The notes under the pieces are model-generated. The model had not been told where the DNA came from. It did no database searches and saw only the letters and a program-made list of their open reading frames with translations. This document shows positions 114-58,501 of a stretch of 64,000 bases of DNA, one piece after another; positions within the stretch are counted from its first letter, which is position 1; every line of letters starts with the position of its first letter. The stretch is taken from NCBI GenBank assembly GCA_000004985.1, contig GG738853.1; one strand, given 5' to 3'. The stretch is from Naegleria gruberi. Its lineage: Eukaryota. A program made the translations under genes and the position numbers.

Positions 114-2336
114 ATGTGGATGGTGTTGATTTCGTGTATTGTGATGTTTGTGTCGATGCAACAACTTCAGTCATTCAACAGTGTTGCTGCCGCCTCCGAC
201 AATTCTACATTTAGTTGCAGTGTAATTGTAAATAATCAAGCGAATCAGAGTTTATCGGATAGGAATTGTTTGAATGGGGGTAAATGTGTTTTAGAGAAGG
301 GAATTTGTAATTGTACAAGTGGATTTACAGGATCAAATTGCTCTATTACCATTGTTGCACCTATTCCTCAGAGCACCATTAATGAAACAACAAAAAACGA
401 GACTAATTCAACCTCACTTGATAATACCAAGGATATTATCTCTAATACTACAAATAATAGCACAAATCCAGATAATAATATTGTCACTCCTCCAACTTGG
501 AAATGTGTTCAAGGCGTGAATTGTATATTTGGAAATTGTACTTCAGATGGAAAATTTTGTAATTGTAGTATTGAGGCATTTACAGTGAAAAATGAAACCC
601 TTGTAGATCCATTGGATATGGTTTATTGTAATTATAAGAACTGTCCAAATAATTGCTCAATGAATGGTGTTTGTGATTATAGTACTGGACAGTGCATATG
701 CTCTGAGCCTTATTTCAGTAATGATTGTTCTCTAAAGAATTGTACGGTATCATGCGTGAAAGGACAAGGAGATTGTGACTTTAATACTGGAAAATGCAAA
801 TGTAAAGACCCTTATTTTGGAAAAGATTGTTCCTCAATTCAGTGTGCAGATCCATCATGCAATTCTGTAGGAAGATGTAACCATAAGAAGGGATTGTGTG
901 AATGTGATGCTGACCATTTTGGAGATGCTTGTCAATTTTGGCTTTGTAAGAATAACTGTACACAACATGGATTTTGTAACACCACAACTTCACTGTGTTC
1001 ATGTGTTGGAGCCTGGACAGAAAGAGATTGTGGAGTCAATTCAAACGTTGTGGAGATGGGAAAGATCAAAGAAAGCTCAAGAATTATCGGTACTTTATTT
1101 GTATTCCTCGTCCCAATATCATTAGTTATTGGCTCATATTATGTGACATATTCCTACTTTGGAGGCTATTTCTTTTTGATAGTGGAGATTTTCCAATTCA
1201 TTGGTATAACCAGTTTGATTGGAAGTAATAGCCCAGCTCTCTATTTGAAATATTCCTCGTTTTTTGAGTGGTCAAACTTTTTATTTAGCACTGCTGAATC
1301 TGCTGTTGTTCAATCTGCTGCAGTAGAAATTGGTGATATTGTTGTTCGATCAGTAGAAGAGGAACGATTGCTCCTCTACAAATTAATTGGTATTTCATTT
1401 ATTGATAACTTGTAAGTTTACTCTCATTGAAATATTAATCATCTATTTAGTGTATTGATTACAACCTCAATCGCTATTGCCATTATGATTTCAGTTTCAC
1501 TAATCCTTATCAAAGTTATTAGAGAAAAGTATTCCGTTTACAATAACCAAGATATTGATGTAATGAAGGACAGAATATTCATTGTTTCTATTAGGTTATC
1601 CTTGCTTGTTTATTCTGGTATTAGTTTGAGTACATTTTATCAAATCAAAATGACCTTGCTTTCACAAGCTCCTATTGTGACACTTTTTACTGCTCTCTCA
1701 ATATTTGTGGCATTTGTTCTTGGTTTTCCCTTCTTGGCAAGTGTTGTACTCAAAGCCAACAGTGACAAGATTTGTCAAAATACTACACACAAAGACTCTC
1801 CATTTACTCCTCTCCACAATGAATTCAAACCAGCAACATATCAATTCTTATTAATAGTCCTCATTAAGAAATGCGCATTCTCATTTGTTATTGGATTTTT
1901 TGAGGGTATTGAGTTATTGATTGGTCTATTGTGTCTCCAAGTTACTTATTTATTTATTATTCTGATTCTTAGACCATATACCCAACCTGGAAGAAACACC
2001 ATTCAAATCATGGTTGAAGCTGTCAATTTATTCAACATTGTTGTATTGGTTCTATTCAATGCCTTTCCATTTAACTCATTTGCCTCAAATCTCCTTACCA
2101 TCATTACAATTTTCCTTCACTGCTGTATTATTATCCTTGCTGTTGTCATTTGCATCTTTGAAAAGAAGAGAAATACTGAAACAAATTCTTCTGGCTACAG
2201 AGCTGGTCTTTTAACAGAAGAAGAACTTGAAATTCAAGGAACTCACACCATTTTTGAAAGTGATTCTGAAGATGAAAGAGTCAATAATTTAGATTTACGA
2301 TCTGATTTTCATGAAATTGACCTAGATAATAAATAA
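114..2336 (+). CDS. EGF-like, cysteine-rich extracellular domain protein with a multi-pass transmembrane C-terminal half. Exon 1 is 114..1411 and exon 2 is 1451..2336.
   Basis: ORFs 114..1415 and 1455..2336 join in frame across a 39-nt intron. The donor is GTAAGT at 1412, the acceptor is AG at 1449-1450, and the exon ends in phase 2. There are many C-x-C and CxxxxC EGF-type spacings and N-glycosylation sites, followed by several hydrophobic helices. Confidence 0.6.
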
Positions 2337-6116: not shown

Positions 6117-7922
6117 TTAGTTTGAGACTACGTCATCAATCTTCAAAAGCATTCTAACTAACTCGGTAGATAAAGCGATAGCACTCAATGTTGTCAGTGT
6201 TGGTTGGATAACATTTTCTTCAACCATATCTGAAATCAAACCCTTCTTAACATTGATACCGGCATTCTTTTCACCGTGCATATGTCTATTTTTGAGTTCA
6301 GTAACAATCTTAATTGGTGACAGACCTGCGTTTTCAGCAAGAGTGGTTGGAATGACTTCCAAACTTTCACCGTATTCACGAACACAATATTGAATAGCAC
6401 CTCTGAGAGTCTTTGAGTATTCAACAAGTCCTAGAGAAATTTCAGTTTCTGGAGCAGAACCACCAGCAATGATACTCTTCTTCTTAACCAAACTTCTAAC
6501 AACGCACAAAGCATCATGGAGGGATCTTTCAGCTTCATCGAGCATCAACTTGTTTGAAGATCTAACCAAACAAGTGACAGTCTTACCTTGAGATGGAATA
6601 CCAGTAATCTTGACAATTCTACCATCACCAGTGTTAACTTCTTCAACTAATCCAGCAGATCCGAGCTTTTCCTTCTTGAATGAATCAATAGAAGAAATTG
6701 GCTTACAGTTCAAAGTCTTTGAAATGAATTCAACATCCTTTCTATCAATATCTTGAATGACCATAATACCCATCTTGGCCAAAAAGTGCAATGACATATC
6801 AGTGGTGGCATCTCTCAAAATAGACTTTTGAATCAAGAGAACATTACATCCTTCCTTCTTGATTTGCTTACAGAGATTGAGCAAATAAGCTCTTTCTTCT
6901 CTCAAAATTCTATCAATTTGTGTATAGTCAGTAATGACAACATTGTTTTCCATATCAGTCTTTGGTGGTGACAATTGGAATTGAATCAAACCAATCTTGG
7001 CATCCTTGATAGAAGTTGGACCACCAGCAGACTTTCTAGTACCTTGATCCAAAACCAAACCTTCAATCAATTCAGTTTCTTCAAGAAGACCTCCCAACTT
7101 TTTAACAATCTTGATATCGTTCAAATCTACATTGGATGCATCCTTTGATTCAACAACACGGAGAACAGCATCAACAGCTAATGGAGCCAAAACATCGGCA
7201 TATTGGTAAACAACCTTTGAACTCAAGGAAGTCTTAGCAGACTTAATCATATTTTCACGATCAGTTAAATCCACTTTAGTAGACATATTATCGAGAATTT
7301 CTTCAGCTTTATCCACACACAATTTGAAAGCATCAGAAATTGTAGTTGGGTGAATACCTCTATCGAGCAAGTTTTGACAAGCAGCAAGCAAAGCTCCAGC
7401 CATAACGACAACGGTAGTAGTACCATCACCAGCTTCAATATCTTGTGATTTTGACAAGGAAACTAACATTTTAGCAGCTGGGTGAGTTGGCTTCATCTTA
7501 TCCAAAATTGTTGCACCATCGTTGGTAATAATGACTTCATCTTTAGGGAGGACAATCATCTTATCCATACCCTTTGGTCCTAAACTAGTTCTGACGGAAT
7601 CAGCCAAAGCTATAATAATGTTGATAATAATGCAAAGTTTTCGGATTTGGATGATGATAATGTTGTTGTTGTTGTTAGTGATGATGCAATTCAATGATGA
7701 TGAATAATATCAAATAGATAAGACAAGTTAATCCATCAAACAATCAATCCACAAAAATACAAATGTATAATTAGTTTCAAAGTTATGATTTTGATTCTTA
7801 CCCTTGGCGGCTTCAATATTTGAGTAACGGACATCCTTTCCTCTTTCCTTTTCATTGACATTGGTTTCACCTTTACCTCTTTGGAAGTTTTGTGTTGGAG
7901 TGGCACCTTGTGTTTGAGACAT
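6117..7922 (-). CDS. cct4: T-complex protein 1 subunit delta (CCT4). Exon 1 is 7922..7802 and exon 2 is 7609..6117.
   Basis: [17 protein letters not shown]...ITNDGATIL...GDGTTTVVV are chaperonin signatures with best recall match to CCT delta. The 5' exon (MSQTQGATP...EAAKG) joins via a GTAAGA donor and a TATAG acceptor to give ...[18 protein letters not shown]. Confidence 0.85.
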
Positions 7923-13782: not shown

Positions 13783-14211
13783 TCTCATTCACAATGAGAA
13801 TATTCTCATTTTATAGATAAATGCTGAAAACTCTCAGATTTTAGAAAACCTCGAGTTCCCCTCTCAAAATAAGACTCAAAAGCCTTAAAAGAATGGTTAT
13901 ACGATCTTGGTACCTGGTAATAAGTACCATCACTGATATTTATCGAAGTGATGAAAATTTGGGTGTACCCAAACGCCTTAATAAAACAAAAGACTACAGC
14001 ACCACAGGTTCCCAAGTTGTCTCCAACCTCAGTACTGATGTGGCTCGACGATGCTTAACTTCTCAAATCGGACGGGATGAGGTGCATTCATCGTGATATG
14101 GCCGTAGCCATTGATAATATCAAAATCTTAATACTGAATAAGAAACCGAATCTTGTACATTAAACATTAATAAGAATAGCGAACTGTTAATTTACGTAAG
14201 CAAAAAAGGAG

Positions 14212-14277
14212 TAGCAAATCTAGGTTTCGATCCTAGGACCTATGGGTTATGAGCCCATCGCGCTGCGCCAATTTGCT
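14212..14277 (-). pseudogene. tRNA-Met (CAU)-like sequence of 66 nt with a collapsed D-arm. It has initiator-like features (A1:U72, GATCGAAAC T-loop).
   Basis: The reverse complement is AGCAAATTGGCGCAGCGCGATGGGCTCATAACCCATAGGTCCTAGGATCGAAACCTAGATTTGCTA. The anticodon stem-loop and T-arm are intact, but only 6 nt lie between the 5' D-stem and the anticodon stem, about 7 nt too few. Confidence 0.45.
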
Positions 14278-17644: not shown

Positions 17645-19422
17645 TTATCTCATATTTCCCATACCACCCATCATTTGTTGTTGTCTTTGTTGATCGTGTT
17701 GATTTTGTTCACTTTCTGGATTCTTGACAGTTTCATCAACTGACAGAACGAGAGTAGCAGCTTCGATCGAGGAAACGAGAGCATTTCTCTTAATGAGAGA
17801 TGGTTCCCAAACAAAGTTGTTAAAATTATCAGCAACATCTTCAGTCTTCATGTCAACACCATACCAAACACCATCCTTGTCTTGATGCTTCTTTCTCAGC
17901 TTATTCAAAATATTTGTAGCATCAAAACCAGCATTTTCAGATAATTGTCTTGGAATAATTTCAAGAGCTTTAGCGAAGGCCAAAATGATTAATTGAGATT
18001 TACCCTTAATACTTCTAGCATGGCTCTTCAAGTGAGCACTGATATCCATTTCAACAGCACCACCACCAGCAACAATTGATGTATTCTTCAAAGTTCTTCT
18101 GACGACCATGATAGCATCGTGCAATGATCTTTCAGCTTCAGCAATGAATTGTTCAGCACCACCACGCAAAACAACAGTAGCAGTCTTGGAGTGAGCACAT
18201 TCAGTGAAAATGTTAAATCTTTCATTACCAACTTGTCTTTCTTCAAAGAGTCCACAAACACCCAAATCAGAATCATTAACCTTTGAGACAGTAGTCAAAA
18301 TCTTAGAACCAGTAGCCTTTGTGACACGGAGCAAATCATCTTCAGCAACACGACCAGCACAGAAAAGTCCTCTATCAGCAAAGTATTGAGTAGCAAGATC
18401 ACCAATGGCCTTCTTGGAAAGGACAATCTTAGCACCACTAGCAACAATCTTTTCCAATTTATCATAAATAATCTTCCATTCAGCATCAACAATAGATTGA
18501 TATTGTTCTGGGTTATTCAACTTGATTTCAGCGTTATCCTTTTCAGCCTTCAATTCAAGTTCAATATTGAGAGTAATAATTTTAGGAGAAATAAACTTCT
18601 TAGGTTGTTGTTCAAAACCAGCATATGAGAAACTCTTCTTGAAAGCAACACCCTTAACGAGGAAAGATTCTTGCATAGAACCACCTGGAACTTGTTTAAC
18701 ACCAATTAAATCAATATCCAAATCATCATCCAATGAAAGAACAGAATCAACAACCATTTCAGAGAAGTGATCGGATTCAATACCACCAATCAATTTAGAT
18801 GAAAGTGATGTTCTGGCAATCTTTCTAAGAAGGTCTCTAGTCTTGTTATTGTCGGTTTTATCAATTTGTACAGCAATTTCTTCCAATCTCTTCAATGCAA
18901 TTCTAAGAGCTTCTCTATAGGCTTTAATGATGAGTTGTGGATGGACACCTTCTTGTATAAATTGTTTGGCTTCCTTCAAGAATTCACCTGCCAAAATTGT
19001 TGTTGTTGTTGTACCATCACCAACTTCACTATCTTGTGATTTAGCAATATCTACTAAAAGTTTAGCTGCTGGATGGACAACATCCAACAATTTAAGAATA
19101 GTGGCACCGTCGTTTGAGATTGTAGCACGACGACCATCGTGTATAAGTTTATCCATTCCTCTAGGACCAAGAGTGGTCTTAATAACATCAACAATAGCAT
19201 AACAAGCGTCAATGTTTGATAAGAGTTGTCCAACACCTTGTGAGGTATCTGTACCATCCTTCAAGAGGATTATGCTAGGTTGCTATAATAATATTCCAAT
19301 ATTATCAATTTGTTGTTGTTGTATATCGAATGATGATGATGAATCCAACAGTTGTTTTCAAAAGAGTTCAAGAAAGTCATCAAAAGTTTTACATTAAAGT
19401 GAGTGTATAAAATCCGTAACAT
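17645..19422 (-). CDS. cct7: T-complex protein 1 subunit eta (CCT7). The main exon is 19282..17645, and a putative 30-nt first exon is 19422..19393.
   Basis: [13 protein letters not shown]...[26 protein letters not shown]...[20 protein letters not shown] and the C-terminal GGMGNMR are CCT-eta hallmarks. The acceptor TTATTATAG at 19283-19284 gives QPSIILLK. The upstream exon ATGTTACGG...TTTAAT|GTAAAA is inferred only. Confidence 0.8.
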
Positions 19423-24121: not shown

Positions 24122-25423
24122 ATGAACACTCATTTCAATGATCTTTCCATTGTTTTTGATCAATCATCATCGGAATGTTTTCATTCAATTGACAATAATC
24201 AATTATTATCATCACCATCCACCACCAACTATGAAATGTTAAAAATCAAGATGAAACAAACAAAATATGAAACATTGGAAAATCAAGTAACAAATCTCTT
24301 TGAACAAAAAGAAATTGTCAAACAATTTTGGAAATTGGAAAGAGAATTTAAATATCTATCTCCCAAGGTACCCAATTATCGATCAATTTTATTACAGGTC
24401 ATTAATAGAAGTTCTGGAATGGTATTACAATATGCAACTAATGAATTGAAGAATGATATTCAGGTGGTGACAAGTGCCTTTATGAAAACTGCTCGTTCTA
24501 TTCAATTTGTTTCGAATAAGTATATTGTAATGAAACTTATAAAAGGGACAAGCTATGCTCCACACCGTTTACAATATTTAAGTGAAGAAATGGCAAGAGA
24601 TGATGAAATTATTCTTGCACTTATTTCACTTTCAAAAATTGGAACTGAAAAATTTATTGAACAACTAAAATTGGATTTTCACACAAATTTCAGAATTAAT
24701 CCAAATGTAATAATGAAATGTTTTTTACAATGCCATTGGATGATTAAATTTGCAGATGAATCACTAAGGGACAATGAAGAATTCATGCTAAAGGCAATGG
24801 AAACCTATCCTAAAACATTATACTACATTTCAGATAGATTGAAACTAAACAAGTCATTTATTCTCAAAGCTGTTAACACAAATGGAAGAGTTTATAATTT
24901 TCTTTCTCCTGAATTTCAAAATGATACTGAAATTATTTCAACAGCTGTGAAACGAAATGGATTTATTTTTGCCTCAATACCAAGAAAATTTCACTCCAAT
25001 AAGGAAATTTTATTGAGTGCCTTCATTGATGGATGTGACAGATATAATGGAAACAATTTTTACACAGTCAATGGTCAATATCGATTCATTTTTAAACAAG
25101 TTCCAAAGGCACTGAAAAGCGATAGAGAACTTGCATTGTCACTTGTTCAAAGATTTGGATATTCTATTTATTATTTGAGCAGAGATTTGATTAATGACAG
25201 AGAAATTGTGTTAAAAGCCATTGAAAATTGTTATTTCTCTATTATGGTAGTTTACAAACATATCTTTGTGTATAGAGATGATGAAATTATGAAATTGGCA
25301 GCAAGACAATATCAACCATCGTCATCATTATCACTACAACTTGATAGGAAATTAAGACGAGAAATTGAGGATGAAAAATATTCTAAACGATCTTCATTTT
25401 CATGGAACAAGTATCAGTACTAA
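24122..25423 (+). CDS. DUF4116 repeat protein.
   Basis: There are tandem repeats of about 30 aa of the form [ED]xxxLKAVxxNGxxLxxxSxELxNDxEIVxxA. Confidence 0.5.
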   Translation: MNTHFNDLSIVFDQSSSECFHSIDNNQLLSSPSTTNYEMLKIKMKQTKYETLENQVTNLFEQKEIVKQFWKLEREFKYLSPKVPNYRSILLQVINRSSGMVLQYATNELKNDIQVVTSAFMKTARSIQFVSNKYIVMKLIKGTSYAPHRLQYLSEEMARDDEIILALISLSKIGTEKFIEQLKLDFHTNFRINPNVIMKCFLQCHWMIKFADESLRDNEEFMLKAMETYPKTLYYISDRLKLNKSFILKAVNTNGRVYNFLSPEFQNDTEIISTAVKRNGFIFASIPRKFHSNKEILLSAFIDGCDRYNGNNFYTVNGQYRFIFKQVPKALKSDRELALSLVQRFGYSIYYLSRDLINDREIVLKAIENCYFSIMVVYKHIFVYRDDEIMKLAARQYQPSSSLSLQLDRKLRREIEDEKYSKRSSFSWNKYQY

Positions 25424-26352: not shown

Positions 26353-26423
26353 GCATTAGTAGTGTAACGGTATCATACCAGCCTTCCAAGCTGGTGACCC
26401 GGGTTCGACTCCCGGCTAATGCA
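26353..26423 (+). tRNA. tRNA-Gly (UCC).
   Basis: The sequence is GCATTAGTAGTGTAACGGTATCATACCAGCCTTCCAAGCTGGTGACCCGGGTTCGACTCCCGGCTAATGCA, 71 nt, with anticodon loop CTTCCAA. Confidence 0.85.
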
Positions 26424-27026: not shown

Positions 27027-27097
27027 TGCATTAGCCGGGAGTCGAACCCGGGTCACCAGCTTGGAAGGCTGGTATGATACCGTTACACTACTAATGC
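27027..27097 (-). tRNA. tRNA-Gly (UCC), an inverted duplicate of 26353..26423.
   Basis: It is the exact reverse complement of the first copy, and the flanks are also mirrored. Confidence 0.85.
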
Positions 27098-29432: not shown

Positions 29433-30250
29433 GAATTATTGAAAAATATAATTGAGGATTCTAAATGAGAGCGAGCTGTTGTTTACAAGATGTGATGTTG
29501 TGAAACTAAAAGAGTAAAGTTTATTGACATTAAGCCAACATTATTATTACATACTTTGTTGATCTACCATCAGTTGCAAATTGTAAAAAATCGTAGTGGA
29601 AAATAGTCTGCAGAAACACAAAAAAAAACGAACGTACGAATATATTGATGAACATTCTTACAACACCATCAGTAACGTGGAGATAAATAATAGTTTAAAC
29701 ACCAAACATAAGAAGGGCAATAAGTAAACAACTGGTGGTCCAAAACACCCATTTTTTTATCTGACTAAAGGGGAGATGGATGCAATTAGTAAAGCTGTGG
29801 ATAGTGAAAAGCAGAAGTTGTATCAACAAACAACATTTTAAAATGTAACAACGATAGAAGGATCCACAAGTTTATCAATCATTAAAAGAAATCATCCAAA
29901 TCTCTGTCCTCCCTTTCTTGTTCTTAATCACTATTTTTTTACAAACGAGTTTAGTCTAGACTGCAAAAACCAGACTGCCAATTGGTCACAAAACATTTAA
30001 CAGTATTCTCTCATGAAATTCGAATACATGAATTAAATGAAATGGTTCAGAAAGATATGAATGAAATGATTGATAATGAGAATACTTTGGAAAGCTGAGT
30101 TGATATTTGAATAGTAAATTGAATCAGTTTTCTATCCAAATTTGGAACCTTACATCCAACTATTTTCAGCTTGTCCCAAATGAAAAACAATTCGAAATGG
30201 TTTAAATTAGCACCATCTGGTTGAACTATCCAATCCAACAAAAACAAAAA

Positions 30251-31222
30251 ATGAAAGCAAATCTAATCTTTTCAATTGCAATTCTACTCTTGCTTGCAAT
30301 CCTCTCAGTTCAAGCAAGTGATAGCTATCAAACTAAACCTCCAGTTGTCGTAGTTGACAAGTATCACAAGCCAAAGGTTTGTAAGAGAAAATGCTTAAAG
30401 CATAAGTGGATTAAGAAGTGTTTGAAACATAAACTCGTTGGTCAAAAGAAGGTCTGTGATCAATATGCAATTGTCGGTGCTGGCAAATGTCTCAAACATA
30501 AGAAATATTCCAAATGTGACAAGTACAGTAAGCCAACAAAGAAGTGTGTCTTGCATGCATACAAGATTGTTGGATGTGCCAAGAAGAAGTACTGGAAAGT
30601 TTGCGATTCTTATGGAACTAAGAAGATTTGCATCAAGAAGGGTTTCAAGAAGTTCTGTGCCAAGTACAAGATTATCAACAAGTGTTTCAAGAAGGGTTTC
30701 AAGAAGGTCTGTAAGAAATTCAAGAAGGTTCCAATCAAGAAGTGTGAAAAGAAGAAGATCTGTGACAAGTACACTGTTGATTCTTACAATAAGAAGGTTG
30801 CCAAATGTAGATATGTTAAAAAGTGCAAGATTGTCTCCTGGGCAAAGAAATGTGCCAAGTATAAGAAGGTTAAATACTGTAAGGAAAGAAAATCTTTCAA
30901 GAAGTGTTGTCTCATTAAGAAGAAATTCTTCTGTGCCAAGCATAAGACCATCAAGTTCTGTAAACACAAGAAGACTCTCTCCAAATGTGTCAAATATAAC
31001 AAGAAGAAGTATTGTGCCAAGTCAATTGTCATTCCACCAAGATGTATCAAGAAGAAGTATTATAAGAAGTGTGTGAAACGTTCAAAGGGAAAGAAGATTT
31101 GTAAGAAATTCAAATTAGTTGGTGGAAAGAAGAAGTGTTGCAAGTCAATTAAGAAGAAGATTTGTATCAAGAGAAAGACATGTAAGAAGCCAACAAAACC
31201 AATCGTCAAACCATCCTTGTAA
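30251..31222 (+). CDS. Secreted, extremely lysine- and cysteine-rich polycationic protein of about 320 aa with Lys near 35% and Cys near 13%. Function is unknown.
   Basis: The signal peptide is MKANLIFSIAILLLLAILSVQA. The mature part is built from degenerate K-x-C modules (CLKHKWIKKCLKHK..., KKVCKKFKKVPIKKCEKKKICDKY...). Codons are strongly biased to AAG/TGT, unlike the neighbouring genes, and local GC is elevated. Confidence 0.6.
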   Translation: MKANLIFSIAILLLLAILSVQASDSYQTKPPVVVVDKYHKPKVCKRKCLKHKWIKKCLKHKLVGQKKVCDQYAIVGAGKCLKHKKYSKCDKYSKPTKKCVLHAYKIVGCAKKKYWKVCDSYGTKKICIKKGFKKFCAKYKIINKCFKKGFKKVCKKFKKVPIKKCEKKKICDKYTVDSYNKKVAKCRYVKKCKIVSWAKKCAKYKKVKYCKERKSFKKCCLIKKKFFCAKHKTIKFCKHKKTLSKCVKYNKKKYCAKSIVIPPRCIKKKYYKKCVKRSKGKKICKKFKLVGGKKKCCKSIKKKICIKRKTCKKPTKPIVKPSL

Positions 31223-31312
31223 AATAGTTGACAAATTTTTCTCTAATTACCTGTAAAATAACAAGAGAATTAATAAAGTATTGAACTTTAACAAAATTCA
31301 ATGCAAAATATC

Positions 31313-31384
31313 CTCCCATGCCGGGAATTGAACCCGGACCTCCTGGGTGAAAGCCAGGTATCCTAGCCATTGGACTACACGGGA
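31313..31384 (-). tRNA. tRNA-Glu (UUC).
   Basis: The reverse complement is TCCCGTGTAGTCCAATGGCTAGGATACCTGGCTTTCACCCAGGAGGTCCGGGTTCAATTCCCGGCATGGGAG, 72 nt, with anticodon loop CTTTCAC. It sits 90 bp downstream of the K/C-rich gene. Confidence 0.85.
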
Positions 31385-31837
31385 TCTCATTCATGATGAA
31401 AACATTCCCATTTCATAGATAAAACACACAAATTGACCATAATCTGTTGGCACTTGCAGTGAACAACCACTCCCAGTTGCCATCAAGACTGGTTGTAGTT
31501 TCCACTTGATTTTAAATCTTGTTCTCTTAGTATTTACGTTGTACATCGGAGCCTTCATACACGCTCTTTATGTTATTTTAATGAAGGATTAAATAAATTG
31601 ATTTTATTAACATCTAGACTTGTCCCTAGTTGTAAAATGATATACGAGTTAGGCATAGGGCAAGGTTGTGAACATTGTTATGTCCGTGATGATTCGGTCC
31701 TTTTTATTAGATCCGTCATCAAAATAACCATGTCAATAACCATCTTTTTGACATGTTCAAGTTGTTGGTTGGTTACAAACACACACTCATTTAGTCAGTT
31801 TTCAGCAATCAATGAAAAACTATCATCTTTAAAAAAA

Positions 31838-34800
31838 ATGAAAGATAATACTTGGTTCACAACAAGTCTTATCATTCAACTCTTTATATTGTTATTAATA
31901 TGTGTCAGTAGTAGTGATGTAATAACATCAGTCAATGGTCAAACAATTCAAGATGATATTTATATTGTTCCAATTCCAAAAGTAGTAACACCTGAATATG
32001 GATCACTTTCATTAACCCCACAAGTTTATTATTTTAATTCATCATATTCATCCAGTTCATTACAATATTTATATTCCATGTCAGATGGTTCAACATTGAA
32101 AAGTGGCATGTCATTCACATCAAATGGTTTATTTACATTTTATCCAAATCCATCACAAATTGGTCAATTTAATATATTAAGAAATGTATCATATTATAAT
32201 AGTGATAACAAGTTTACAATAATTTCACACACCATTACAATTCAAGTAATTTCATCACCTTCCAATAATGGTAATCAATTACAATTATTATTTTCAGATA
32301 ATTTCACATTTAATTTATCAAATTGGAATTTAATTGATGGAACAATGAAATTACAATCAAATCAATTAAATTTATTCCAAAATAATACAATTTTAACAAG
32401 TGTTAAATATTTTGATATTTTTAATAATAATAATAATGGTTTAACTTTTACTTTTAATTTATTAACTTCATGGACTTCTACAAGAGGTATATTACTATAT
32501 ATAGATAAATTGAATTATTATGAAATTAATTTATCAAATTCACCTTTAACTATTAAACGTTATTTAAATGGTGAATTAACAATTGTATTACAAAGTACTA
32601 AATTATTACAAGTTCATACTTCAAATTATTATTCAAGTTATAAATTATTTTTACAATTTACTAAAAATGGAATTTTAATCAATTTGGCTAAAATTGGAAC
32701 ATTATCAAGTGATTATTATTTAAATGTAATTGATAATTTTACTAATATGGAATTATTTAAAAATATTAAATTTGGATTTTTTGATAAAAGTGCATCTTCA
32801 CCAACTGTGTCCACTTTTAAAGTTTTACAATTTCAAGTTTTTAATGGAAAATTAATTCACACCAGACAAGCACAAACTTATCATGTTGATGCAACTAATG
32901 GAAATGATTTAAATGATGGGTTAACAAAATCAACTGCTTTAAAAACATTAAATACAGCTCAATATCAATTATTACCTGATGATACTTTACTAGTTTATGA
33001 TTCTATTTATAGAGAAAGTTTCCAAATTAATAGAGAAGCATCAATTTATCATCCAATTACAATTAAAGCAGTTAATCAACCAACTACTACAACTACCACA
33101 TTTACAACAACACCATATACTCATACATCAATTATTGATGGTTCACTTGTATTAGATAATTCTAAATTAACTAAAATTAGTAATAGTAACATTTATCAAA
33201 CCTATATTAAATTTACACCAGATGTAGTTTATTTAAATGGTGTGAAAATGAGTTTAGCAATGAAACCACTTCCAGCTGATTTACAAGATGAATATTTTAC
33301 AGATAATTATATTCATCCATTAAATAATTCAAAATTTCATCTGATAATTTATTAATTTATTTAAAATTAGATGAAATGTTTAAATATGATTCATTTGGTA
33401 ATAGAGTTTCAGATAATTATTGGAATGGTGCTGATTTATATCATTATTATTATGGAGCTAATATTGTTTTCACACGTAGAATTTTATCTTACAATGCATC
33501 AACCAATACTATTGGAATGGAATATAGAGATTCTATATGGGGACAATTAATTATTTCAACAAGTGATTTCTATGCTATTGGTAATCATGTTGGTTGTTTT
33601 TCACAAGCTAATCAATATGTTTCCTCTAATAATCAAATATCAGTTTCATTGAGTAGTGATCCATATTATATTCAATCTAATTCTCTATTATTAGAAGTAT
33701 CATCTCTCTCGAATGGTATTAAATTTACAAATGGAATGGAAGGTATTAGAGTTCAAGGATTAATGATTAGAAAATTCACAAGTGATGGAATTCAATGTTC
33801 TTCTCAATGTAATAATATTGTTCAACTAAATATAATGGTGGATCAGGTGTCAGTTTCACATCCTCTCAAAACATACTCATTGATGGAGGTGAACATTCAC
33901 AAAATTTCAATAATGGAATTAATTTTGGAGGTGGAATGAAAGATTCAACTATTGAAAATTCCTACGTTCATGAAAATGTCAATAATGGTATTTGGGTAGG
34001 TAATGGTGGTTCCAATCTATTCTATTGTTGGAATATTCTATTAAAATCTAATAAGGTTGGACCACATTTTAGTCAACGTCTCCATCCAGATAATATTCAA
34101 TTAGCTAGTTCACATAATGTAACATTAGATTCTAATATTCTCATTCAATCAGGTGGTGATCAAAATATGTGGATGGAACAAAATGGTCTCGTCACATTTA
34201 AAAGAAATATTTTCATTAATGGACCACTTGGTTTAAATCATGCATTGAATTTAGTATTAATTAATAATATATTTTATCAATCATGGATGAGATATTCATT
34301 TAAATTTGAAAATTATGTTACTTATAGTTCACTTGTTGGTTTACAAAGTGTTTTAGATTGGAATCAAATGTTTAATAGTTTAAATAGTAGTACTACTACC
34401 ATTAATGGAAATGATTTACCTAATATACTTGTTTGGAAAGATTTAAATTTACAAATATCAAATAGAATTAAATCATATTCATCTTTTAATTTATTAACTA
34501 ATTCAGATAAAAATGATTTAATTAATCATTTAAATAATATTATTAATAATACTTTATTTATGAAAGAACATAAAGATTTAGTATTACCTTTATTAGGAAA
34601 ATCAAATGTTGCATATCCATATTGGACTGCAATTACTAAACGTGGATTATTAGATAATTCAACAGGTCAATTCAATTTAATGACAAGTGACATTTCAATC
34701 ATTGAAGAAGTTAGAGGTTTAACACGTGCTATTTTAGATGAATTAGTTTTTGATGGAATTTTATCAAAATCTTTAATGACATTTTATCCAAGAATTGTTT

Positions 34801-43110: not shown

Positions 43111-44299
43111 ATGTCTACTCCGACAATGACAGCAGAGTTTGACGATAGTCATTTAACTACGTTTAAATTTGGACAGTCTGATGCTCATATGCATGACTCA
43201 CTCGATCCTTCCCAATGGAAAATAACAGATTTTGAATTGTTAGAAATTATTGGTACTGGTACTTTTGGTAGTGTTAGATTAGTTAAACATAAACATACAC
43301 AACAATACTATGCTATGAAAATTATTAAAAAGTATGATGTAATTAGAATGAAACAAGTAGAACATATCATTAGTGAGAAGAATATTCTCTCTCAAGTTGA
43401 TCATCCTTTCATTGTTAGACTTTATAGAACATTCCAAGATGAAAATTATTTATTCATGATTATGGAATATGTGTGCGGAGGTGAATTGTTTTCACATTTG
43501 AGACGTGTTGGTAAATTCCCTAATGATGTTGCAAAGTTTTATGCTGCTGAAATTATTTTAGCTATGGAATATCTTCATATGAAGAATATTGTTTATCGTG
43601 ATTTGAAACCAGAAAATGTTTTATTAGATAATGATGGTCATGTAAAAATTACTGATTTTGGTTTTGCTAAGAAGGTTCTTGACCGTACGTGGACTTTATG
43701 TGGTACTCCTGAATATTTAGCGTAGGTTTTTATTAATCTCTTAATATTTAAATTACTCTTTAATCTCTTAATCATAATGATAATACTCTTAATCATTCTG
43801 ATAATCTAAATCATCTAATTATTTTATTATGAATAGTCCTGAAATTATTCAATCTAAGGGTCATGGTAAAGCTGTTGACTGGTGGGCATTAGGTATTCTT
43901 ATTTATGAAATGTTAGTTGGTTATCCACCATTCTTTGATGATTCACCTTTCAAAATTTATGAAAAGATTTTACAAGGAAAGGTTGAATTTCCAAGATTTA
44001 TGGATCCAATGGCTCGTGATTTAATTAAACGTCTCTTAACTACAGATAAGATGAAACGTTTGGGTAATTTGAAAGGAGGTGCTGCTGATATTAAGGAACA
44101 CAAATGGTTTAAGGGTGTTGATTGGGATGAATTATATAATAGACAAATTGCATCTCCAATTCCTGTCAAGATTAGTTTTGCAGGTGATTCTAGATACTTT
44201 GAAACTTATCCGGAATCTCAAGATCATTGTATTCACCACACTGGTACTCCACATCAACAATTATCTGCTGATGTTCAAGCTCTATTTGATGGTTTTTAA
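43111..44299 (+). CDS. AGC-family protein kinase resembling the cAMP-dependent protein kinase catalytic subunit. Exon 1 is 43111..43721 and exon 2 is 43837..44299.
   Basis: It carries [42 protein letters not shown] and GTPEYLA|[19 protein letters not shown], with a C-terminal FxxF (ALFDGF). The intron is GTAGGT...AATAG, exon 1 ends in phase 2, and it interrupts subdomain VIII exactly. Confidence 0.75.
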
Positions 44300-45977
44300 T
44301 TTTTATTAAATGTATGTGAGAATACTGTATATACATCAAATAAAGTTATACATATTGTCACTGTACTTTTACTAAACAAGGTTTTAAACACTTGTTTCCA
44401 TTCATTTGTAAATAATGATTGAATAGTTTTCAAATCAATAACAATGTCAATAAAACACCAAAATCTAATCCATTCACAACCCCAATCTAATTCAATTGGA
44501 ATTCTAATGACTTGTTCCCTTGTTAATGATGGTGGTGAGGTTGGTGATGGTGATTCATCATGATTTTTATCATTATTCATTGTTTCATCTCCATTTGTTG
44601 TAGCAGTAGTAGTTGAATCATTTCCATTCACCGTCATTGTATCATCATTATTTTCATTATAATAAGAATTATCAAATTCAATTGACCATCTAGATCTAAA
44701 ACCAATACTAAATAAATATAATTGTTCATAAAATTTTGAAGTCATGTAATAAAATAGAGTATTATAAAATTTTCCATACGATTGAAATAAACCTCCAACA
44801 GAATGTTCAGCAGTTGCAACTTGTAAATCAATGAAATAACGTAAAATTTTAGAAATTTGAACAAGAATATTTCTACACTTGTTAATTAAATGAATAATTC
44901 TATTCAATTTTGATAAATAATTCATATTATTAGAATTTTTATAATTATTTAAAATTCTCAATTCAGGTAAAAGTTCATTATCTAAAATAGGAGGTGGTGG
45001 TAATTCAACTTTAGAAAAAACTTCTTGTTGATCATAATATTCTTTCCATTTTTGTAAAAATACTTGTTGTGAATTTTCTGAAAAAGGAGTCCATAATAAA
45101 CCTCTTTTTGTTAAAGAAATATTAAAATCATTTAATAAATTTGATCTAATTTGTAAACTATATCCTTTTATAGAAGTAGAAATTCCATAAATTAATTTTT
45201 TAAAATTATGAAAATTCATAATTGATAAACTTAAATATAAATATCTTGCTAAATAAGGAATATAAAATTTTCTTCTTAACATTAATTTAGTAATAAAATC
45301 TTTAATTTTCATTTGATATCCAAAATTAGTAGATAATTTATATTTACCAAAAATAAAACCAATATAATTAATTAAAATTAAATATAATTTTGATTTTTCA
45401 TTAAAAGGTTTATGTAAATGTAATTTAAATATACCATATATATATTTCATATCTAAATATTTAAATAATTTTTTAAAATAATTTTTAAAATAATTTATAT
45501 TTTTTTCATTTAATTTAATTTTATATTTAAATGTTTCTCTATTTGTATAATTTTCATTTCCAATATTAGAATTAAATGTATTATAAAAGGAAGTATATTG
45601 ATTATATTCTTCTTCTTGTTCTCTTTGCATTTCTTCAATATCATCATCTTGATAATAAATATTATTTCCATCTTTGGTAATATTATATATATCATAATGA
45701 TATTCACTTCCAATTGAATATCCTATTTTTTTATCTAATTGAATAAAACTTTATATATTTTATAATAATATTTAAAAATTATATTTAATTAATATTAAAA
45801 TTATATTTAATTAATATTATATTTAAATTAAAAAAAAACATACTTTATAGGTATTTGTAAATTATGAGTAGGATAACATCTCATTGAAATATCAAATGTA
45901 GCATATTCTAAATCCCATGGATGTGTATCTTCATAAGAATCCCAATTTAATGATGCATTTAATTTATATATTTCCAT
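44296..45977 (-). CDS. Hypothetical protein of about 530 aa and unknown family. Exon 1 is 45977..45844 and exon 2 is 45748..44296.
   Basis: Exon 1 encodes MEIYKLNASLNWDSYEDTHPWDLEYATFDISMRCYPTHNLQIPIK, then a GTATGT intron to the acceptor ATAAAG. The rest is Y/K/N-rich with a conserved-looking C-terminus (DWGCEWIRFWCFIDIVIDL). It overlaps the kinase gene 3' end by 4 bp. Confidence 0.4.
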
Positions 45978-49319: not shown

Positions 49320-50462
49320 TTATTTATTTAAATTAATATATTTAACATTTAATTCAATACCATTATTACTTTGATTTCTAAAAATGGAATTAAAATTATC
49401 ATTTTTTAAATTATTTGAATAATCAAATGCAATTCCCATACTTTCAGTACTAAAAGTATAACCAAATTCTAATTGATCATAATCAGTAACTTTACATGAT
49501 AAACATCCAATTTTTCTTTCATTTGTAAAATTAATTAAATTACCATAAATAGAAAATAAAGCTTGTTCCATTGGAATTTCAAATATTTTATCAACTAGAT
49601 AATTTGACATTTGATTTAACATGATATCTTCACCAATTCCACTAAAATTACTTGCAATTTGTATAAAATTATCATTATCACTATCTTGTACATATTTAGT
49701 ATCTGAATAACATCCACTTCCATATATAGAAGCTTCACCAATTCTACCTGAATATTTTAATGATATTCCACCACTACTAACACCTGATGATAATATTCCA
49801 TTATAATATATTATACATCCAACTGTATCATATNNNNNNNNNNNNNNNNNNNNNNNNNNNNNNNNNNNNNNNNNNNNNNNNNNATTATTTAAATTATTTA
49901 TATTATTATTACCATTTATATTATTATTATTAAAATTATAAATAGATGAAAAACATAAACATGCATCACATTCAACTAAACCATTTCTATTTAAATTACT
50001 ACCATATCCAGCATTTGTAAATGGTGAATTTTCTAAAATAGAAATAGCATATGAACATGCATTTAAACATTTTTTTATTTTTTCATTTTCATCATTTTTA
50101 TTTATAAATTTACTATTATTTAAATTATTTAAATTATTAAAATATTGATTAATAGTTTGTTGTATAGATTGTTTCATTAAATTTCTATATAAATTATTAT
50201 TATTAATAGAATGATATCCTGCTCCACAATGAACTGCAATAAAATATACATCATCTTCATCTTCATCATCTTTTAAATCATTATTTAAATCATTATTTAA
50301 ATTATTATATTCTATTATTTCATTATTATTATTATTATCTTGTTGTTGTTGAATAGATAAAGATGATGATGATGAATTATTCCGATCAACATGTTGATGA
50401 TGATTAACTTGTTCACTCATTTTTTTAAAGTTTATAATAGAAAAAAACAAATTGTAACACAC
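49320..50462 (-). CDS. Threonine aspartase 1 (Taspase-1, asparaginase-2 / Ntn-hydrolase family), interrupted by a 50-N scaffold gap.
   Basis: FIAVHCGAGYHS, LENSPFTNAGYGSNLNRNGLVECDA and DTVGCIIY...SSGGISLKYSGRIGEASIYGSGCY match the Taspase-1 core, including the Thr nucleophile of DTVG. Confidence 0.65.
   Translation of the reverse strand: MCYNLFFSIINFKKMSEQVNHHQHVDRNNSSSSSLSIQQQQDNNNNNEIIEYNNLNNDLNNDLKDDEDEDDVYFIAVHCGAGYHSINNNNLYRNLMKQSIQQTINQYFNNLNNLNNSKFINKNDENEKIKKCLNACSYAISILENSPFTNAGYGSNLNRNGLVECDACLCFSSIYNFNNNNINGNNNINNLNNXXXXXXXXXXXXXXXXXYDTVGCIIYYNGILSSGVSSGGISLKYSGRIGEASIYGSGCYSDTKYVQDSDNDNFIQIASNFSGIGEDIMLNQMSNYLVDKIFEIPMEQALFSIYGNLINFTNERKIGCLSCKVTDYDQLEFGYTFSTESMGIAFDYSNNLKNDNFNSIFRNQSNNGIELNVKYINLNK
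49834..49883. other. Assembly gap of 50 N.
   Basis: A run of n characters sits inside the Taspase-1 coding region. Confidence 0.99.
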
Positions 50463-50582: not shown

Positions 50583-51836
50583 TTATTGTAAAATATTATA
50601 CATTAATAATTCTAAAATATTTGTAATTAAAATAACATGTTTACAACTTTGTATATTTTTAGAATCACATACTAATAATGGTAATTGATAATTAATAGCT
50701 AATTCAATAGAATTATTTAATAAATTTAAATGATTATTATTTAAATATTTAATTAAATTATTTTCATTTTCATTATTAAAAGTATTTAATAACATTATTT
50801 CCATTACATCTAATTGTTCTTCATCATCTTTAAATTTACTACCAATTAATGAATTTGATTTTACTTTTAATCCATTTATAGATTCATTTGTATCTAATTT
50901 CCATATTGGTATATTTAATAAATTATTTAAATTTTCATTAAATAAATAAATTACATAAGTTTTACCTGAATATAAATTTGCTGAAAATATTGATTTTCTT
51001 GAATGTGGTGATTTTATACCACCATGATCTTGAAATGATATTTGTATATATTTACTATTATTATTATTATTATTATTACTATTTATAGAATTATTTAAAT
51101 TATTAAATTCAATTAAATTATTATTATTATTAATAAATAATTCAAATGATTTCATTACAATTCTAAAATCAATAGTTTGATCATATTTATTAAAATCTTG
51201 ATCAATTTTATCACAAATATTATTAACAAATTTAGATTTACCTGTTTTAGAATTACCTTTTACATGAATTCTAAAAAATAAATTAGTTAAATCATCTGAT
51301 CTATTATTAAATTGTGTTTTTGTAATTTCTTTAAATTTAAAATAATATTTTGTAATTGTTTGACATAAAATTCTTTCATTTTTTAAATTATTTAATTTTA
51401 AATTTTTAATTTTATCAGAATTAAATGGAAAATATAATATTCCAATTTCATTTTTTAATAAATATTTCCATATTTGATCACATGGTGTTTTTATTTCATT
51501 ATTTAAATTATTATTTAAAATAGATTGACCACAAATATATTCATACCAATCTTTATTTAACATTGATAATAATGTTAATTCATAAGTATTTAAAAATGAT
51601 ATTATTTCAAATGTCATTTCATGTGTTAAATCAAAATTATTATTAAATATAAATGAAATTGTTTTAATTGATGTACTTGTTGTTGTAGTTGTTGTACTTG
51701 TAGTTGTAGTAGTAGTTGTATTATTATCATTATTATCATTGTTATCATTGTTAATAGTAGTTGTATTATTATCAATTAAATGATGATCGGAAGGATCTTC
51801 TTGTTGATCAATAATAATATGATTATTGTTGATCAT
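50583..51836 (-). CDS. F-box-like domain protein with a P-loop small-GTPase-like central region.
   Basis: The N-terminal part has poly-N/T runs and then an F-box-like segment (MTFEIISFLNTYELTLLSMLNKDWYEYI). Later there is a G1-like motif (GNSKTGKS), a DxxG-like motif (QDHGG) and a beta-strand pattern. The gene is very AT-rich. Confidence 0.4.
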   Translation of the reverse strand: MINNNHIIIDQQEDPSDHHLIDNNTTTINNDNNDNNDNNTTTTTTTSTTTTTTSTSIKTISFIFNNNFDLTHEMTFEIISFLNTYELTLLSMLNKDWYEYICGQSILNNNLNNEIKTPCDQIWKYLLKNEIGILYFPFNSDKIKNLKLNNLKNERILCQTITKYYFKFKEITKTQFNNRSDDLTNLFFRIHVKGNSKTGKSKFVNNICDKIDQDFNKYDQTIDFRIVMKSFELFINNNNNLIEFNNLNNSINSNNNNNNNSKYIQISFQDHGGIKSPHSRKSIFSANLYSGKTYVIYLFNENLNNLLNIPIWKLDTNESINGLKVKSNSLIGSKFKDDEEQLDVMEIMLLNTFNNENENNLIKYLNNNHLNLLNNSIELAINYQLPLLVCDSKNIQSCKHVILITNILELLMYNILQ

Positions 51837-57313: not shown

Positions 57314-58501
57314 TTATTGAATTGGAATGTATTCTTCTTCATGTTGTTGAGGTGGATGTTGTAGTGATGGAATAATTAGTGTTGAAATTGACTTGTTATT
57401 TTTATAATAATAAAATTGAATAGCAATAATAAAACTAAATAATAAAGTAAAAATACTTCCTAAAATGTAAGGAAATGTTGAAACTACATCCATTGTATTT
57501 GTAATATAAAATAATATTATACTTATTAAATACAATACTTGTGTTAATGTATCAATAATAAACATTAATAACTATAAATATATTTAATAATTAATCATAA
57601 TTAAATTAATTTTGTTAAAAATAATTAAATAAATAAATTTAAAACAAATTATTTCAAAACTTACAGATAAACCTTCAACACTCTTCTTTTTATAATTTTT
57701 AATAATTTGTGGAATGTATGCAATAATATAACAAGTACATGATATATATGAAATTATAATTCCAATTATATTTGCAATTTCATTATCATTATTAATAATT
57801 GAAGTATTACATAATTTTACAGTACTGCTACCATCACCACTACTACTACTAATAAATATATTAAAAAATAATAATAAAACAAATAAAGAAATAATCCAAT
57901 GTGAATTTAATTGATTATATTTTAATTGATTAAATTTTTTTAAAATAAAATTAAAAAATAAAATAAATAATTTTTCATAATAACAATATTGAGTAATAAT
58001 TAAAATATCCATAAAAACATAATAAATAGCTAAATATAATTGAGTAGGTAATTGATTTGTTAAAATACAACCAATTAAATTAGTAACATCACCAATCATC
58101 CAAATAAGGAATAAATAAATTGATAAACCTTTTGCAGATTTAAATACAAAATTTTTAATAACTTGTGGAAATAAACTAATCATACTTGTTAATATACTTA
58201 ATAATCCTAATATATAACTTGTTATTTCATTTGTTTCATAAAAACATTCTCTAAATATTAATGCAATAAATTCATTATAATGATTATTTCCTTTTTTAGT
58301 AGGTAAACATTGACATAAAAATGATGAAAATAATATTTCTTGATTATTTTCATTATTATTATTTAATAAAAATGTTTCATTATTAAATAATATAGGTAAT
58401 GATGATGATGATGATGAATAAAATGATAAAAATTGTTTACTATTCATTTCAGTGCATTTTTTTAAAAAAATCTTTACAATAAAATTATTTTTTATTATCA
58501 T
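57314..58501 (-). CDS. PQ-loop repeat (7-TM, cystinosin/Ypq-like) membrane protein. Exon 1 is 58501..57665 and exon 2 is 57571..57314.
   Basis: It has two PQ motifs (LFPQVIKNFVFKSAKGLS and YIPQIIKNYKKKSVEGLS). A GTAAGT intron starts at 57664 and the TATAG acceptor ends at 57572, joining ...VEGLS|LLMFIIDTLTQ.... Seven hydrophobic helices can be counted. Confidence 0.55.

Follow-up and report, generated by a model that had tools for sequence, protein, structure and literature searches.

A candidate disulfide-stapled giant beta-hairpin in a secreted lysine- and cysteine-rich protein family of Naegleria

We describe a gene in a 64,000-nucleotide stretch of Naegleria gruberi DNA (contig GG738853.1 of assembly GCA_000004985.1; the whole stretch is called the window below), which encodes a presumably secreted protein of extreme lysine and cysteine content. 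The cysteines are arranged as a palindrome along the chain. We suggest that the protein is a secreted structural polycation, namely a cross-linkable cationic strut of the extracellular matrix, most plausibly, by analogy with other amoebae, of the Naegleria cyst wall. We assign to this reading a probability of roughly 0.4. The hairpin or ladder topology of the chain, on which it builds, we consider probable. The disulfide map, the rod length, the secretion of the protein and its whole role are inferred; the reality of the gene, the selection on it, the distribution of the family, the palindromic spacing with its paired indels and the AlphaFold2 hairpin prediction are shown.

Results

Gene and protein

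The gene is an intact single-exon open reading frame (ORF) without introns. The biological start is the ATG at 30251, and the mechanical ORF opens upstream of it, at the TTG at 30221. The coding sequence (CDS) occupies 30251..31222 of the plus strand and comprises 323 codons and the stop codon at 31220-31222. An earlier note on this DNA had given the span as 30221-31400, the end of which takes in a neighbouring tRNA. The same note had described a signal peptide followed by about 310 lysine, cysteine and hydrophobic residues, and this is borne out by a stretch of about 300 residues dominated by K, C and hydrophobic or aromatic side chains. It had estimated about 100 lysines, in good agreement with the 108 counted (33.4%), and about 45 cysteines, where only 32 are present (9.9%). 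The chain further contains 6 arginines, 9 acidic residues (Asp and Glu together) and about 38 aromatic residues, including 18 tyrosines.

The N-terminus of the product, MKANLIFSIAILLLLAILSVQA followed by SDSYQ..., has the form of a signal peptide, which is kept in all full-length homologs and modeled as a helix at residues 3-18 by AlphaFold2. The mature protein of about 301 residues has a net charge of about +104, a pI of 10.1 and a Lys:Arg ratio of 107:6. Its sequence shows no hydrophobic glycosylphosphatidylinositol (GPI) or transmembrane (TM) signal, no KDEL or other retention signal and no N-glycosylation sequon.

Palindromic spacing of the cysteines

The protein consists of about 30 degenerate nonapeptides of the type hydrophobic-K-x-K-x-x-K-x-C, each ending in cysteine. 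Fourteen of the 31 cysteine spacings are exactly nine residues, a number reached in none of 20000 shuffles. Hence, the spacing has a sharp mode at nine in place of the loose range of 7-10 proposed earlier. The degenerate modules noticed before are in fact a palindromic cystine ladder, which had been overlooked.

The ladder has an N-arm (residues 44-171) and a C-arm (residues 186-311), which are mirror images of each other in their cysteine spacing. From the ends inward, the paired spacings of the window protein are 4/6, 9/9, 12/12, 11/10, 9/9, 10/10, 10/9, five times 9/9, 11/9 and 6/6, followed by a 15-residue tip loop with V-D-S-Y. The typical pattern of the family, also from the outer end inward, is 4/7, 10/9, 12/12, 11/10, 9/9, 10/10 and then runs of 9/9. 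A strictly periodic array is trivially mirror-symmetric, and only the irregular spacings are informative. In 10 of 10 members the mirror alignment of the spacings beats 1000 of 1000 order-shuffles, at about half the cost of the direct-repeat alignment in these members. We therefore rejected a direct duplication within the chain as the origin of the pattern, the direct-repeat cost being about twice the mirror cost. The sums of the paired positions are nearly constant along the ladder, for example 384 over ten consecutive rungs in the N. fowleri protein.

The changes between members follow the same rule. In at least five cases, an indel or a rung loss peculiar to one lineage has its counterpart at the same rung of the other arm. 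Both arms are shortened in P0003, where 12/12 and 11/10 became 9/9 and 9/9. The N. lovaniensis protein and the N. gruberi paralog Ngru_66117 carry insertions (15/21 and 17/21) where others have 9/9, and both loops contain D-x-Y motifs. The N. fowleri clade has lost one whole rung, with 17/18 at the place of 11/9 plus 6/9 in P0007 and P0020. Further matched changes are 11/11 in P0023 and P0014 and 13/13 in P0014. Such paired changes correspond, at the protein level, to the compensatory changes seen in RNA helices. The ladder geometry is kept while the lysine content of the family varies from 12% to 33%, and the window protein shares the traits of the family, with full-length homology, a signal peptide and mirror-image cysteine arms.

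In mirror order, the rungs would run from 44-311 and 48-305 to 171-186, and these 15 rungs use 30 cysteines. Two cysteines are spare, one from each CC doublet (219/220 and 296/297), and were assigned as C220 and C297. Exactly two spare cysteines occur in every short-form member, at differing positions, and one in the 66117 clade. We saw no alternation of a conserved loop and a variable linker among the spacings. A polyprotein precursor of antimicrobial peptides was also considered and rejected: the units are degenerate, conservation and mirroring of the cysteine framework extend over the whole chain, and spacers or a processing architecture are missing.

A second sequence feature is the D-[STP]-Y motif, which matches three times in the window protein, each time as D-S-Y. 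Two copies lie in termini or loops, S23-D-S-Y in the N-terminal tail and V176-D-S-Y in the tip loop. The third, C118-D-S-Y, is inside the N-arm beside a rung cysteine and breaks this pattern. Apart from this exception, D-[ST]-Y(-K-P) is found throughout the family in flexible termini, at the tip and in mirrored bulges. Tandem copies occur at the C-terminus, as four times IDSYKP in the N. fowleri protein and four times VDTYKPPKK in P0022. The long-form subfamily described below lacks the D-[STP]-Y motif.

Predicted structure

AlphaFold2, run on an alignment of 15 sequences, predicts one giant beta-hairpin with a mean predicted local distance difference test (pLDDT) score of 80.5 and 143 residues at or above 90. 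The N-arm strands comprise residues 48-92, with short breaks, and 96-171, the tip residues 172-185, and the C-arm strands residues 186-261 and 265-308. The central hairpin appeared already in a prediction from three sequences. The five models agree, with mean pLDDT values from 61.6 to 80.5. The modeled ribbon is not facially amphipathic, its two faces carrying 23 and 30 lysines and 22 and 18 hydrophobic residues.

A Foldseek search of the model against the PDB gave nothing at E <=0.001, and a fold search of BFVD gave no match. The weak top matches of Foldseek (E of 0.2-5, TM-score <=0.12) are stem hairpins of pore-forming toxins.

Family and selection

A single-sequence search of 5.8 billion proteins returned three matches only, two from N. 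gruberi and one from a soil read set, with E from 7.5e-57 to 2.7e-84. The last 128 residues of one of them, XP_002668872 (NAEGRDRAFT_76199, P0002), are about 97% identical to the C-terminus of the window protein. This public gene model is a chimera, in which residues 1 to about 293 belong to a SAM/PB1 protein and residues 316-443 correspond to the C-arm, matching 30764..31219 of the window. The SAM/PB1 part has no counterpart anywhere in the 64-kb window. Judged from these alignments, NAEGRDRAFT_76199 is mis-modelled and misses its N-terminal half with the N-arm, which suggests a gap or a misassembly in its 39.8-kb scaffold. The N. gruberi protein NAEGRDRAFT_67458 is a colinear paralog of 301 residues with 47-50% identity.

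A profile search of 1.84 billion representatives gave 17 matches at E <=0.001, about 15 of which are credible and two apparently spurious repeat matches. Two rounds of profile search add FDP41_004030 of N. fowleri, C9374_009239 of N. lovaniensis and NAEGRDRAFT_66117 of N. gruberi. They also add about ten environmental sequences and a long-form subfamily (NAEGRDRAFT_57793, about 710 residues) with an extra N-terminal domain of cysteine modules. In the long forms P0024, P0016 and P0023, residues of about 100-370 (10001..12223 of L003) form modules of about 40 residues with cysteine spacings of 18-5-5-12 or 18-5-5-8, for example CPxGxK...C....C....C. No Pfam match was obtained for this array, which may represent another undescribed cysteine module.

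All named members come from Naegleria, from the three species N. gruberi, N. fowleri and N. lovaniensis, and all are annotated as hypothetical. A literature search found no mention of any member. The Pfam scan gave zero families for the window protein at E up to 10 and none above threshold for eight homologs at E up to 1; the families so searched include dictyostelid spore-coat and prestalk Cys-rich repeats and EGF-like, granulin and chitin- or cellulose-binding modules. The PDB sequence search (phmmer and profile) gave no credible match, and two metagenome scans gave no match. Look-ups of contigs by exact sequence, made with the window protein, P0001-P0003 and two adjacent ORFs, gave no record either. 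Thus, the family appears to be uncharacterised and, among named homologs, restricted to Naegleria. The earlier note knew of no described family of this composition among dictyostelids. The statement holds insofar as no clear match to a known family was obtained in Pfam, PDB sequences or fold libraries, but its dictyostelid frame is wrong. A dictyostelid origin was rejected, every named homolog being from Naegleria and a DUF4116 protein lying nearby, and comparisons with dictyostelid spore-coat and prestalk proteins are beside the point because the homologs are Naegleria proteins.

An ortholog is present on L002, a 1343-bp Logan contig from SRR32051688, with 81% DNA identity and about 1.0 synonymous substitutions per site (dS). 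The ratio of nonsynonymous to synonymous rates (dN/dS) is 0.14 overall, and within the ladder it is 0.11. Of the aligned cysteines 30 of 31 are conserved, and of the aligned lysines 94 of 105. Hence, the cysteine framework and the polybasic character are under strong purifying selection. We note that L002 has an in-frame TGA (620..640) where the window has GGA (Gly108) and is otherwise an intact ortholog; the TGA is either an error in the read or the assembly, or a nonsense allele of very recent origin. The ends of the contig carry neither a poly(A) tail nor a tRNA, and thus do not show whether it is a transcript.

These data also bear on the possibility that there is no gene at all, only a chance open frame in low-complexity AAG/TGT-rich DNA. 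The repeat does yield long spurious ORFs in two other frames, and both of those pointed out before, one on each strand, are indeed present as its by-products. Yet a dN/dS of 0.14 at a dS of about 1.0, the signal peptide and the colinear homologs in three Naegleria species and in environmental data leave this explanation with a negligible probability. On the grounds of dN/dS and conservation, we rejected a spurious ORF.

Codon usage and base composition

Codon choice in the CDS has two components. The content of G and C at third codon positions (GC3) is 0.49, the top value among 31 long ORFs in the window, the other 30 being at <=0.31. The total GC content of 35.5% is above the window mean of 29.2%, and several upstream genes have 31-37.5%. 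The earlier note had put local GC well above that of the surrounding genes; this is right with respect to the window mean, and GC3 is outstanding, but total GC is no higher than in several upstream genes. It had also stated that AAG is used for almost every lysine, where we count 83 of 108 (77%). Phenylalanine is encoded by TTC in 10 of 11 cases.

The AAG:AAA ratio depends on context. It is 59:6 for lysines adjoining another lysine and 24:19 for isolated ones. When the next codon begins with A it is 47:1, and when it begins with another base 36:24 (p = 1.3e-6). There is no AAA-AAA pair in the CDS, and the longest A run is five. The effect of the next base is replicated in the L002 ortholog (34:7 versus 28:28) and occurs also in 13 other ORFs of the window (AAG 53% versus 34%). 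Taken together, the dependence on the next base, the missing AAA-AAA pairs, the short A runs and the replication show that the preference for AAG serves in large part to keep poly(A) tracts out of a gene that has 108 lysine codons.

A residual bias is left. Outside the A context AAG amounts to 60%, compared with 34% in the background, and GC3 of the non-lysine codons is 0.35. As an internal reference for codon bias of the expression type we used two different genes for CCT/TCP-1 chaperonin subunits, which lie about 10 kb apart at 6117..7568 and 17645..19156, both on the minus strand, with AAG fractions of 0.82 and 0.70. The residual bias is comparable with or stronger than that of these two genes and is kept in the ortholog. 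It is consistent with high expression, without proving it. The description of the bias as ribosomal-protein-like is therefore only partly right, much of the bias being poly(A)-tract avoidance.

Discussion

Proposed architecture and role

We suggest the following course of events. After cleavage of the 22-residue signal peptide, the N-arm and the C-arm would pair in antiparallel orientation in the endoplasmic reticulum. About 15 cross-strand disulfides would zip them into a twisted beta-ribbon of two strands. With arms of about 125 residues, this ribbon would have a length of about 35-40 nm, and its charge would be about +104. Both termini with their D-S-Y/K-P tails would then be located at one end of the rod, and the V-D-S-Y tip loop at the other. 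The two partnerless cysteines, one per CC doublet, would stay free for intermolecular disulfides. Electrostatic attraction and the approximately 38 aromatic residues would hold the strut to acidic or glycan polymers, and disulfide cross-links, perhaps also tyrosine-based ones, would lock it in the matrix.

A structural extracellular role, rather than that of an enzyme, a lectin or a classical antimicrobial peptide, is suggested by the signal peptide without TM, GPI or retention signals, the conserved rod geometry and the spare cysteines. The terminal D-[ST]-Y(-K-P) motifs, the absence of facial amphipathicity and the strong purifying selection point in the same direction. The residual codon bias of the high-expression type, conserved in the ortholog, was also counted toward a structural or matrix role. 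Cyst-wall proteins of amoebae are known to carry Thr/Lys/Cys-rich and basic Thr/Lys/His-rich segments (PMC6541295).

Several points weigh against the proposed strut. The cyst wall is assigned to it by analogy only; no anionic partner or composition of the Naegleria cyst wall is documented in the literature searched, and no expression or localisation record was found for family members by locus tag, in a study of N. fowleri cyst and trophozoite RNA sequencing (RNA-seq) or among SRA/ENA accessions. A charge of +104 on a two-stranded ribbon would be electrostatically costly without counter-polyanions. The odd period of nine places successive rungs alternately at hydrogen-bonded and non-hydrogen-bonded sites of a regular ribbon, so that the real geometry must include twist or bulges. 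Statistics of cross-strand residue pairs favor the proposed register no more than shifted ones. An inter-chain, arm-swapped pairing would fit the palindrome equally well. Finally, the AlphaFold2 alignment is shallow, and the predicted template modelling score is low (0.31), as expected for a rod.

Some of these structural points also speak for another architecture, in which the nonapeptides would build a solenoid or beta-roll, or else a row of small C-x8-C loops closed by sequential disulfides, the AlphaFold2 hairpin being then an artefact of a shallow and repetitive alignment. Nine-residue repeats form beta-rolls in RTX proteins, which provide a precedent; an odd period suits a regular two-stranded ladder badly, the pairing statistics fail to pick a register, and the prediction builds on 15 sequences and has a low global score. 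However, such an architecture predicts no mirror symmetry, while the mirroring extends to the irregular spacings of all members (reached by 0 of 1000 shuffles in each), the mirror alignment is better than the direct-repeat one, and an indel or a lost rung on one arm recurs on the other. The five models agree with each other, and the alternation of conserved loops and variable linkers is missing. We thus give a roll or sequential loops little credence.

The function may also be sought elsewhere than in a wall. The protein might be an antibacterial or bacteria-agglutinating polycation, secreted or phagosomal, which binds anionic envelopes (lipopolysaccharide, teichoic acids), similar to a scaled-up disulfide-stapled cationic beta-hairpin antimicrobial peptide or to a granule polycation such as the eosinophil major basic protein. 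Naegleria eats bacteria, and its bacterivory, the charge of about +104 combined with a signal peptide and a residual codon bias that would suit an abundant trophozoite product all agree with this idea. Protegrin, tachyplesin and theta-defensins share, in formal terms, the motif of the predicted stapled hairpin. Yet in length, charge, preference for Arg over Lys and amphipathicity the protein does not resemble the beta-hairpin antimicrobial peptides, although it could still act like one. The dN/dS of 0.11-0.14 and the exact rung geometry across species are unlike those of typical fast-evolving effectors, and paralogs keep the ladder at 12-20% lysine, which argues that charge is not the conserved core. 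The family was not found by locus tag and accession in supplementary tables of the N. fowleri secretome and proteome, which may use other identifiers; this is a weak point, since trypsin would shred the protein. In general, absence from tryptic proteomes says little because lysine occurs at about every third residue. Among the rows listed in a supplement on N. gruberi differentiation RNA-seq, no family member was found either. On balance, we consider an antibacterial function, the main alternative to the strut, unlikely.

The protein may also be a general polyanion binder or adhesive, which binds or condenses polyphosphate, extracellular DNA or acidic glycans, either at the cell surface or inside secretory vesicles, or which glues the amoeba or the cyst to negative substrates in the manner of the Lys/Tyr-rich mussel adhesive proteins. 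The extreme lysine density, the 18 tyrosines and the K-P and Y-K motifs in flexible ends fit such a function, as do the lack of a catalytic or lectin domain in Pfam and of N-glycosylation sequons. It leaves unexplained the precise ladder geometry and the two spare cysteines, both kept in low-lysine paralogs, and it would overlap with the wall strut instead of excluding it. As a separate explanation it seems rather improbable to us. The earlier note had put forward both an antimicrobial or agglutinating protein and a polyanion-binding matrix protein, and either may still apply.

Features and surroundings of the gene

The features of the gene and its immediate surroundings are collected in Table 1. 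The tRNA-Glu had already been placed correctly by the earlier note, 90 bp past the stop codon.

Table 1. Features of the candidate ladder gene, its spurious overlapping frames and neighbours, in positions of the window
Feature	Position	Strand	Basis or remark
Complete CDS, putatively secreted polycationic Lys/Cys protein	30251..31222	+	Ortholog of the C-terminal part of the apparently mis-modelled N. gruberi NAEGRDRAFT_76199
Signal peptide, residues 1-22 (MKANLIFSIAILLLLAILSVQA), predicted cleavage after V-Q-A	30251..30316	+	-3/-1 rule, from the sequence
Flexible N-terminal tail of the mature protein, residues 23-43 (SDSYQTKPPVVVVDKYHKPKV), with D-S-Y and D-K-Y/K-P motifs	30317..30379	+	pLDDT <50 at residues 21-41; motif recurs in the family
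N-arm of the predicted ladder, residues 44-171, 15 Cys mostly 9 apart	30380..30763	+	Cys spacing and AlphaFold2 strands
Predicted hairpin tip loop, residues 172-185 (DKYTVDSYNKKVAK), with internal V-D-S-Y	30764..30805	+	Centre of the palindromic Cys spacing; low pLDDT at residues 176-182; between the long strands
C-arm of the predicted ladder, residues 186-311, 17 Cys, 15 of them mirroring the N-arm	30806..31183	+	Cys spacing and AlphaFold2 strands
K/P-rich C-terminal tail (KKPTKPIVKPSL) and stop codon	31184..31222	+	pLDDT <50 at residues 319-323
Spurious 190-residue antisense ORF from the AAG/TGT-rich repeat, not a gene	30395..30967	-	Homology and selection signals all in the plus frame of 30251..31222
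Spurious 212-residue Arg/Ser-rich ORF in an alternative frame, not a gene	30438..31076	+	By-product of the repeat
tRNA-Glu(UUC), convergent, 90 nt past the stop codon	31313..31384	-	Neighbouring gene; no sign of a functional link
Examples of AT-rich ORFs	44296-45630, 49320-50420, 50583-51836, 57584-58501, 62636-63919		

The composition of the window is uneven. With the exception of the ladder CDS (0.49), GC3 lies between 0.20 and 0.31 in the ORFs of the first 31.5 kb or so. Farther on, many ORFs contain poly-N/poly-T tracts, and their GC3 falls to 0.03-0.11 and their total GC to 16-25%. The latter are interleaved with ordinary genes (PFK, DIRP/Myb, PDEase). Those scanned against Pfam gave no match, and they may be fast-evolving ORFans or DNA of foreign or viral origin. 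The AT-rich ORF at 31598..33355 (+), directly downstream of the tRNA-Glu, encodes 572-585 residues, which include N/T-rich tracts and a hydrophobic segment in the interior. The Pfam scan of this ORF gave no match, and the search of 5.8 billion proteins gave no homolog, although there low-complexity words may have filled up the list of candidates. A comparison of the AT-rich ORFan with viral contigs revealed no viral relative.

Two 100% identical genes for tRNA-Gly(UCC) are located about 600 bp apart in inverted orientation, at 26353..26423 (+) and 27027..27097 (-), within an inverted repeat of 118 bp with 97.5% identity. ARAGORN calls a tRNA-Met at 14211..14277 (-), which is only 67 nt long and has its anticodon at position 27 instead of the usual 33-34 or so; the call may be false, or the tRNA atypical or degenerate. 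The ORF at 24122..25423 (+) encodes a protein with five DUF4116 repeats (E = 1e-54), a repeat family which we take to be expanded in Naegleria, in keeping with the taxon. The ORF at 114..1415 (+) looks secreted and cysteine-rich; it has EGF or teneurin-type EGF repeats and is unrelated to the ladder family.

Significance

Taken jointly, the proposed features would make a new architecture: a two-stranded beta-ribbon of one chain with about 125 residues per arm and about 15 disulfides, one every nine residues, forming a bivalent, lattice-forming polycationic nanorod of 35-40 nm and the longest hairpin of this kind known. We put this whole combination at even odds. The two spare cysteines and the Tyr/Lys/Pro motifs at the ends would make a rod bivalent, and such rods could polymerise into a lattice outside the cells of Naegleria species, the pathogen N. 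fowleri among them. The rungs recur every 30 Å or so (9 x 3.3-3.4 Å), which is the length of three repeats of chitobiose or cellobiose; more speculatively, the rod might thus serve as a ruler or clamp on wall microfibrils.

The ladder hairpin, if true, is a fold class absent from the PDB and a template for rigid, covalently stapled and highly charged nanorods. If it is a component of the cyst wall or the surface, it provides a genus-specific marker and a target for understanding the resistance of cysts to disinfection (FDP41_004030 in N. fowleri). With a lysine about every three residues, the protein is nearly invisible to tryptic proteomics, and this, together with the fusion of the N. gruberi ortholog to a SAM/PB1 protein in the public model, helped the family to be overlooked. 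The gene also represents a clean natural case in which poly(A)-tract avoidance sets the codon choice of a 33% lysine protein.

Comparison with known systems

Among the nearest formal relatives are the beta-hairpin antimicrobial peptides, which have 11-25 residues, 1-4 disulfides and a charge of +1 to +8, and which are Arg-rich and amphipathic (PMC13001179). The window protein is similar to protegrins, tachyplesins, gomesin and the "cystine ladder" of theta-defensins in its cationic character, its presumed entry into the secretory pathway and the single antiparallel hairpin held by disulfides, which is predicted here. Unlike them, it has about 300 residues, about 15 rungs nine apart, a charge of about +104, a Lys:Arg ratio of 107:6, no amphipathic face and no sequence homology. 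Hence, of the traits that define these peptides (PMC13001179), the disulfide-cyclised hairpin is shared by prediction, and length, charge with Arg over Lys, and amphipathicity are not. "Cystine ladders" in the searchable literature have 2-4 rungs.

Among protist wall proteins, the Acanthamoeba proteins Jonah, with its Thr/Lys/Cys-rich domain, and Leo and Leo-TKH, which are lectins, as well as the Jacob lectins of Entamoeba, are likewise secreted, cysteine-rich and lineage-specific, with basic Lys-rich segments of low complexity and without TM or GPI anchors, and they are abundant in the wall (PMC6541295). However, they are built of compact lectin domains with six or eight cysteines or of CAA/CBM49 modules with spacers, whereas the ladder protein is one continuous array without a lectin domain or Pfam match.

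The COWP/OWP proteins of apicomplexans are secreted wall-type proteins with a cysteine every 10-12 residues or so, and their rigidity is thought to come from disulfide cross-links. They resemble the ladder protein as secreted wall-type proteins with periodic cysteines, but consist of repeated multi-cysteine domains, some His-rich, and are not polybasic. No homology of the ladder family to COWPs was detected in the Pfam scan and the family searches, and we know of no description of a palindromic single-hairpin topology in them.

The plant proline-rich wall proteins and extensins (PPVYK-type) and the mussel foot proteins (Y-K-P-rich decapeptides) use their motifs for oxidative cross-linking of a matrix through tyrosine or DOPA. 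They share basic Lys/Tyr/Pro motifs with the D-[ST]-Y-K-P(-P-K-K) of the ladder family, where however the motif belongs to the termini and loops and the bulk is the cystine ladder. Very long two-stranded hairpins are also found in the stems of beta-pore-forming toxins (lysenin, aerolysin, anthrax PA). Unlike the ribbon proposed here, these stems have 30-50 residues per strand, are amphipathic, contain no disulfides and exist only when laterally assembled in barrels.

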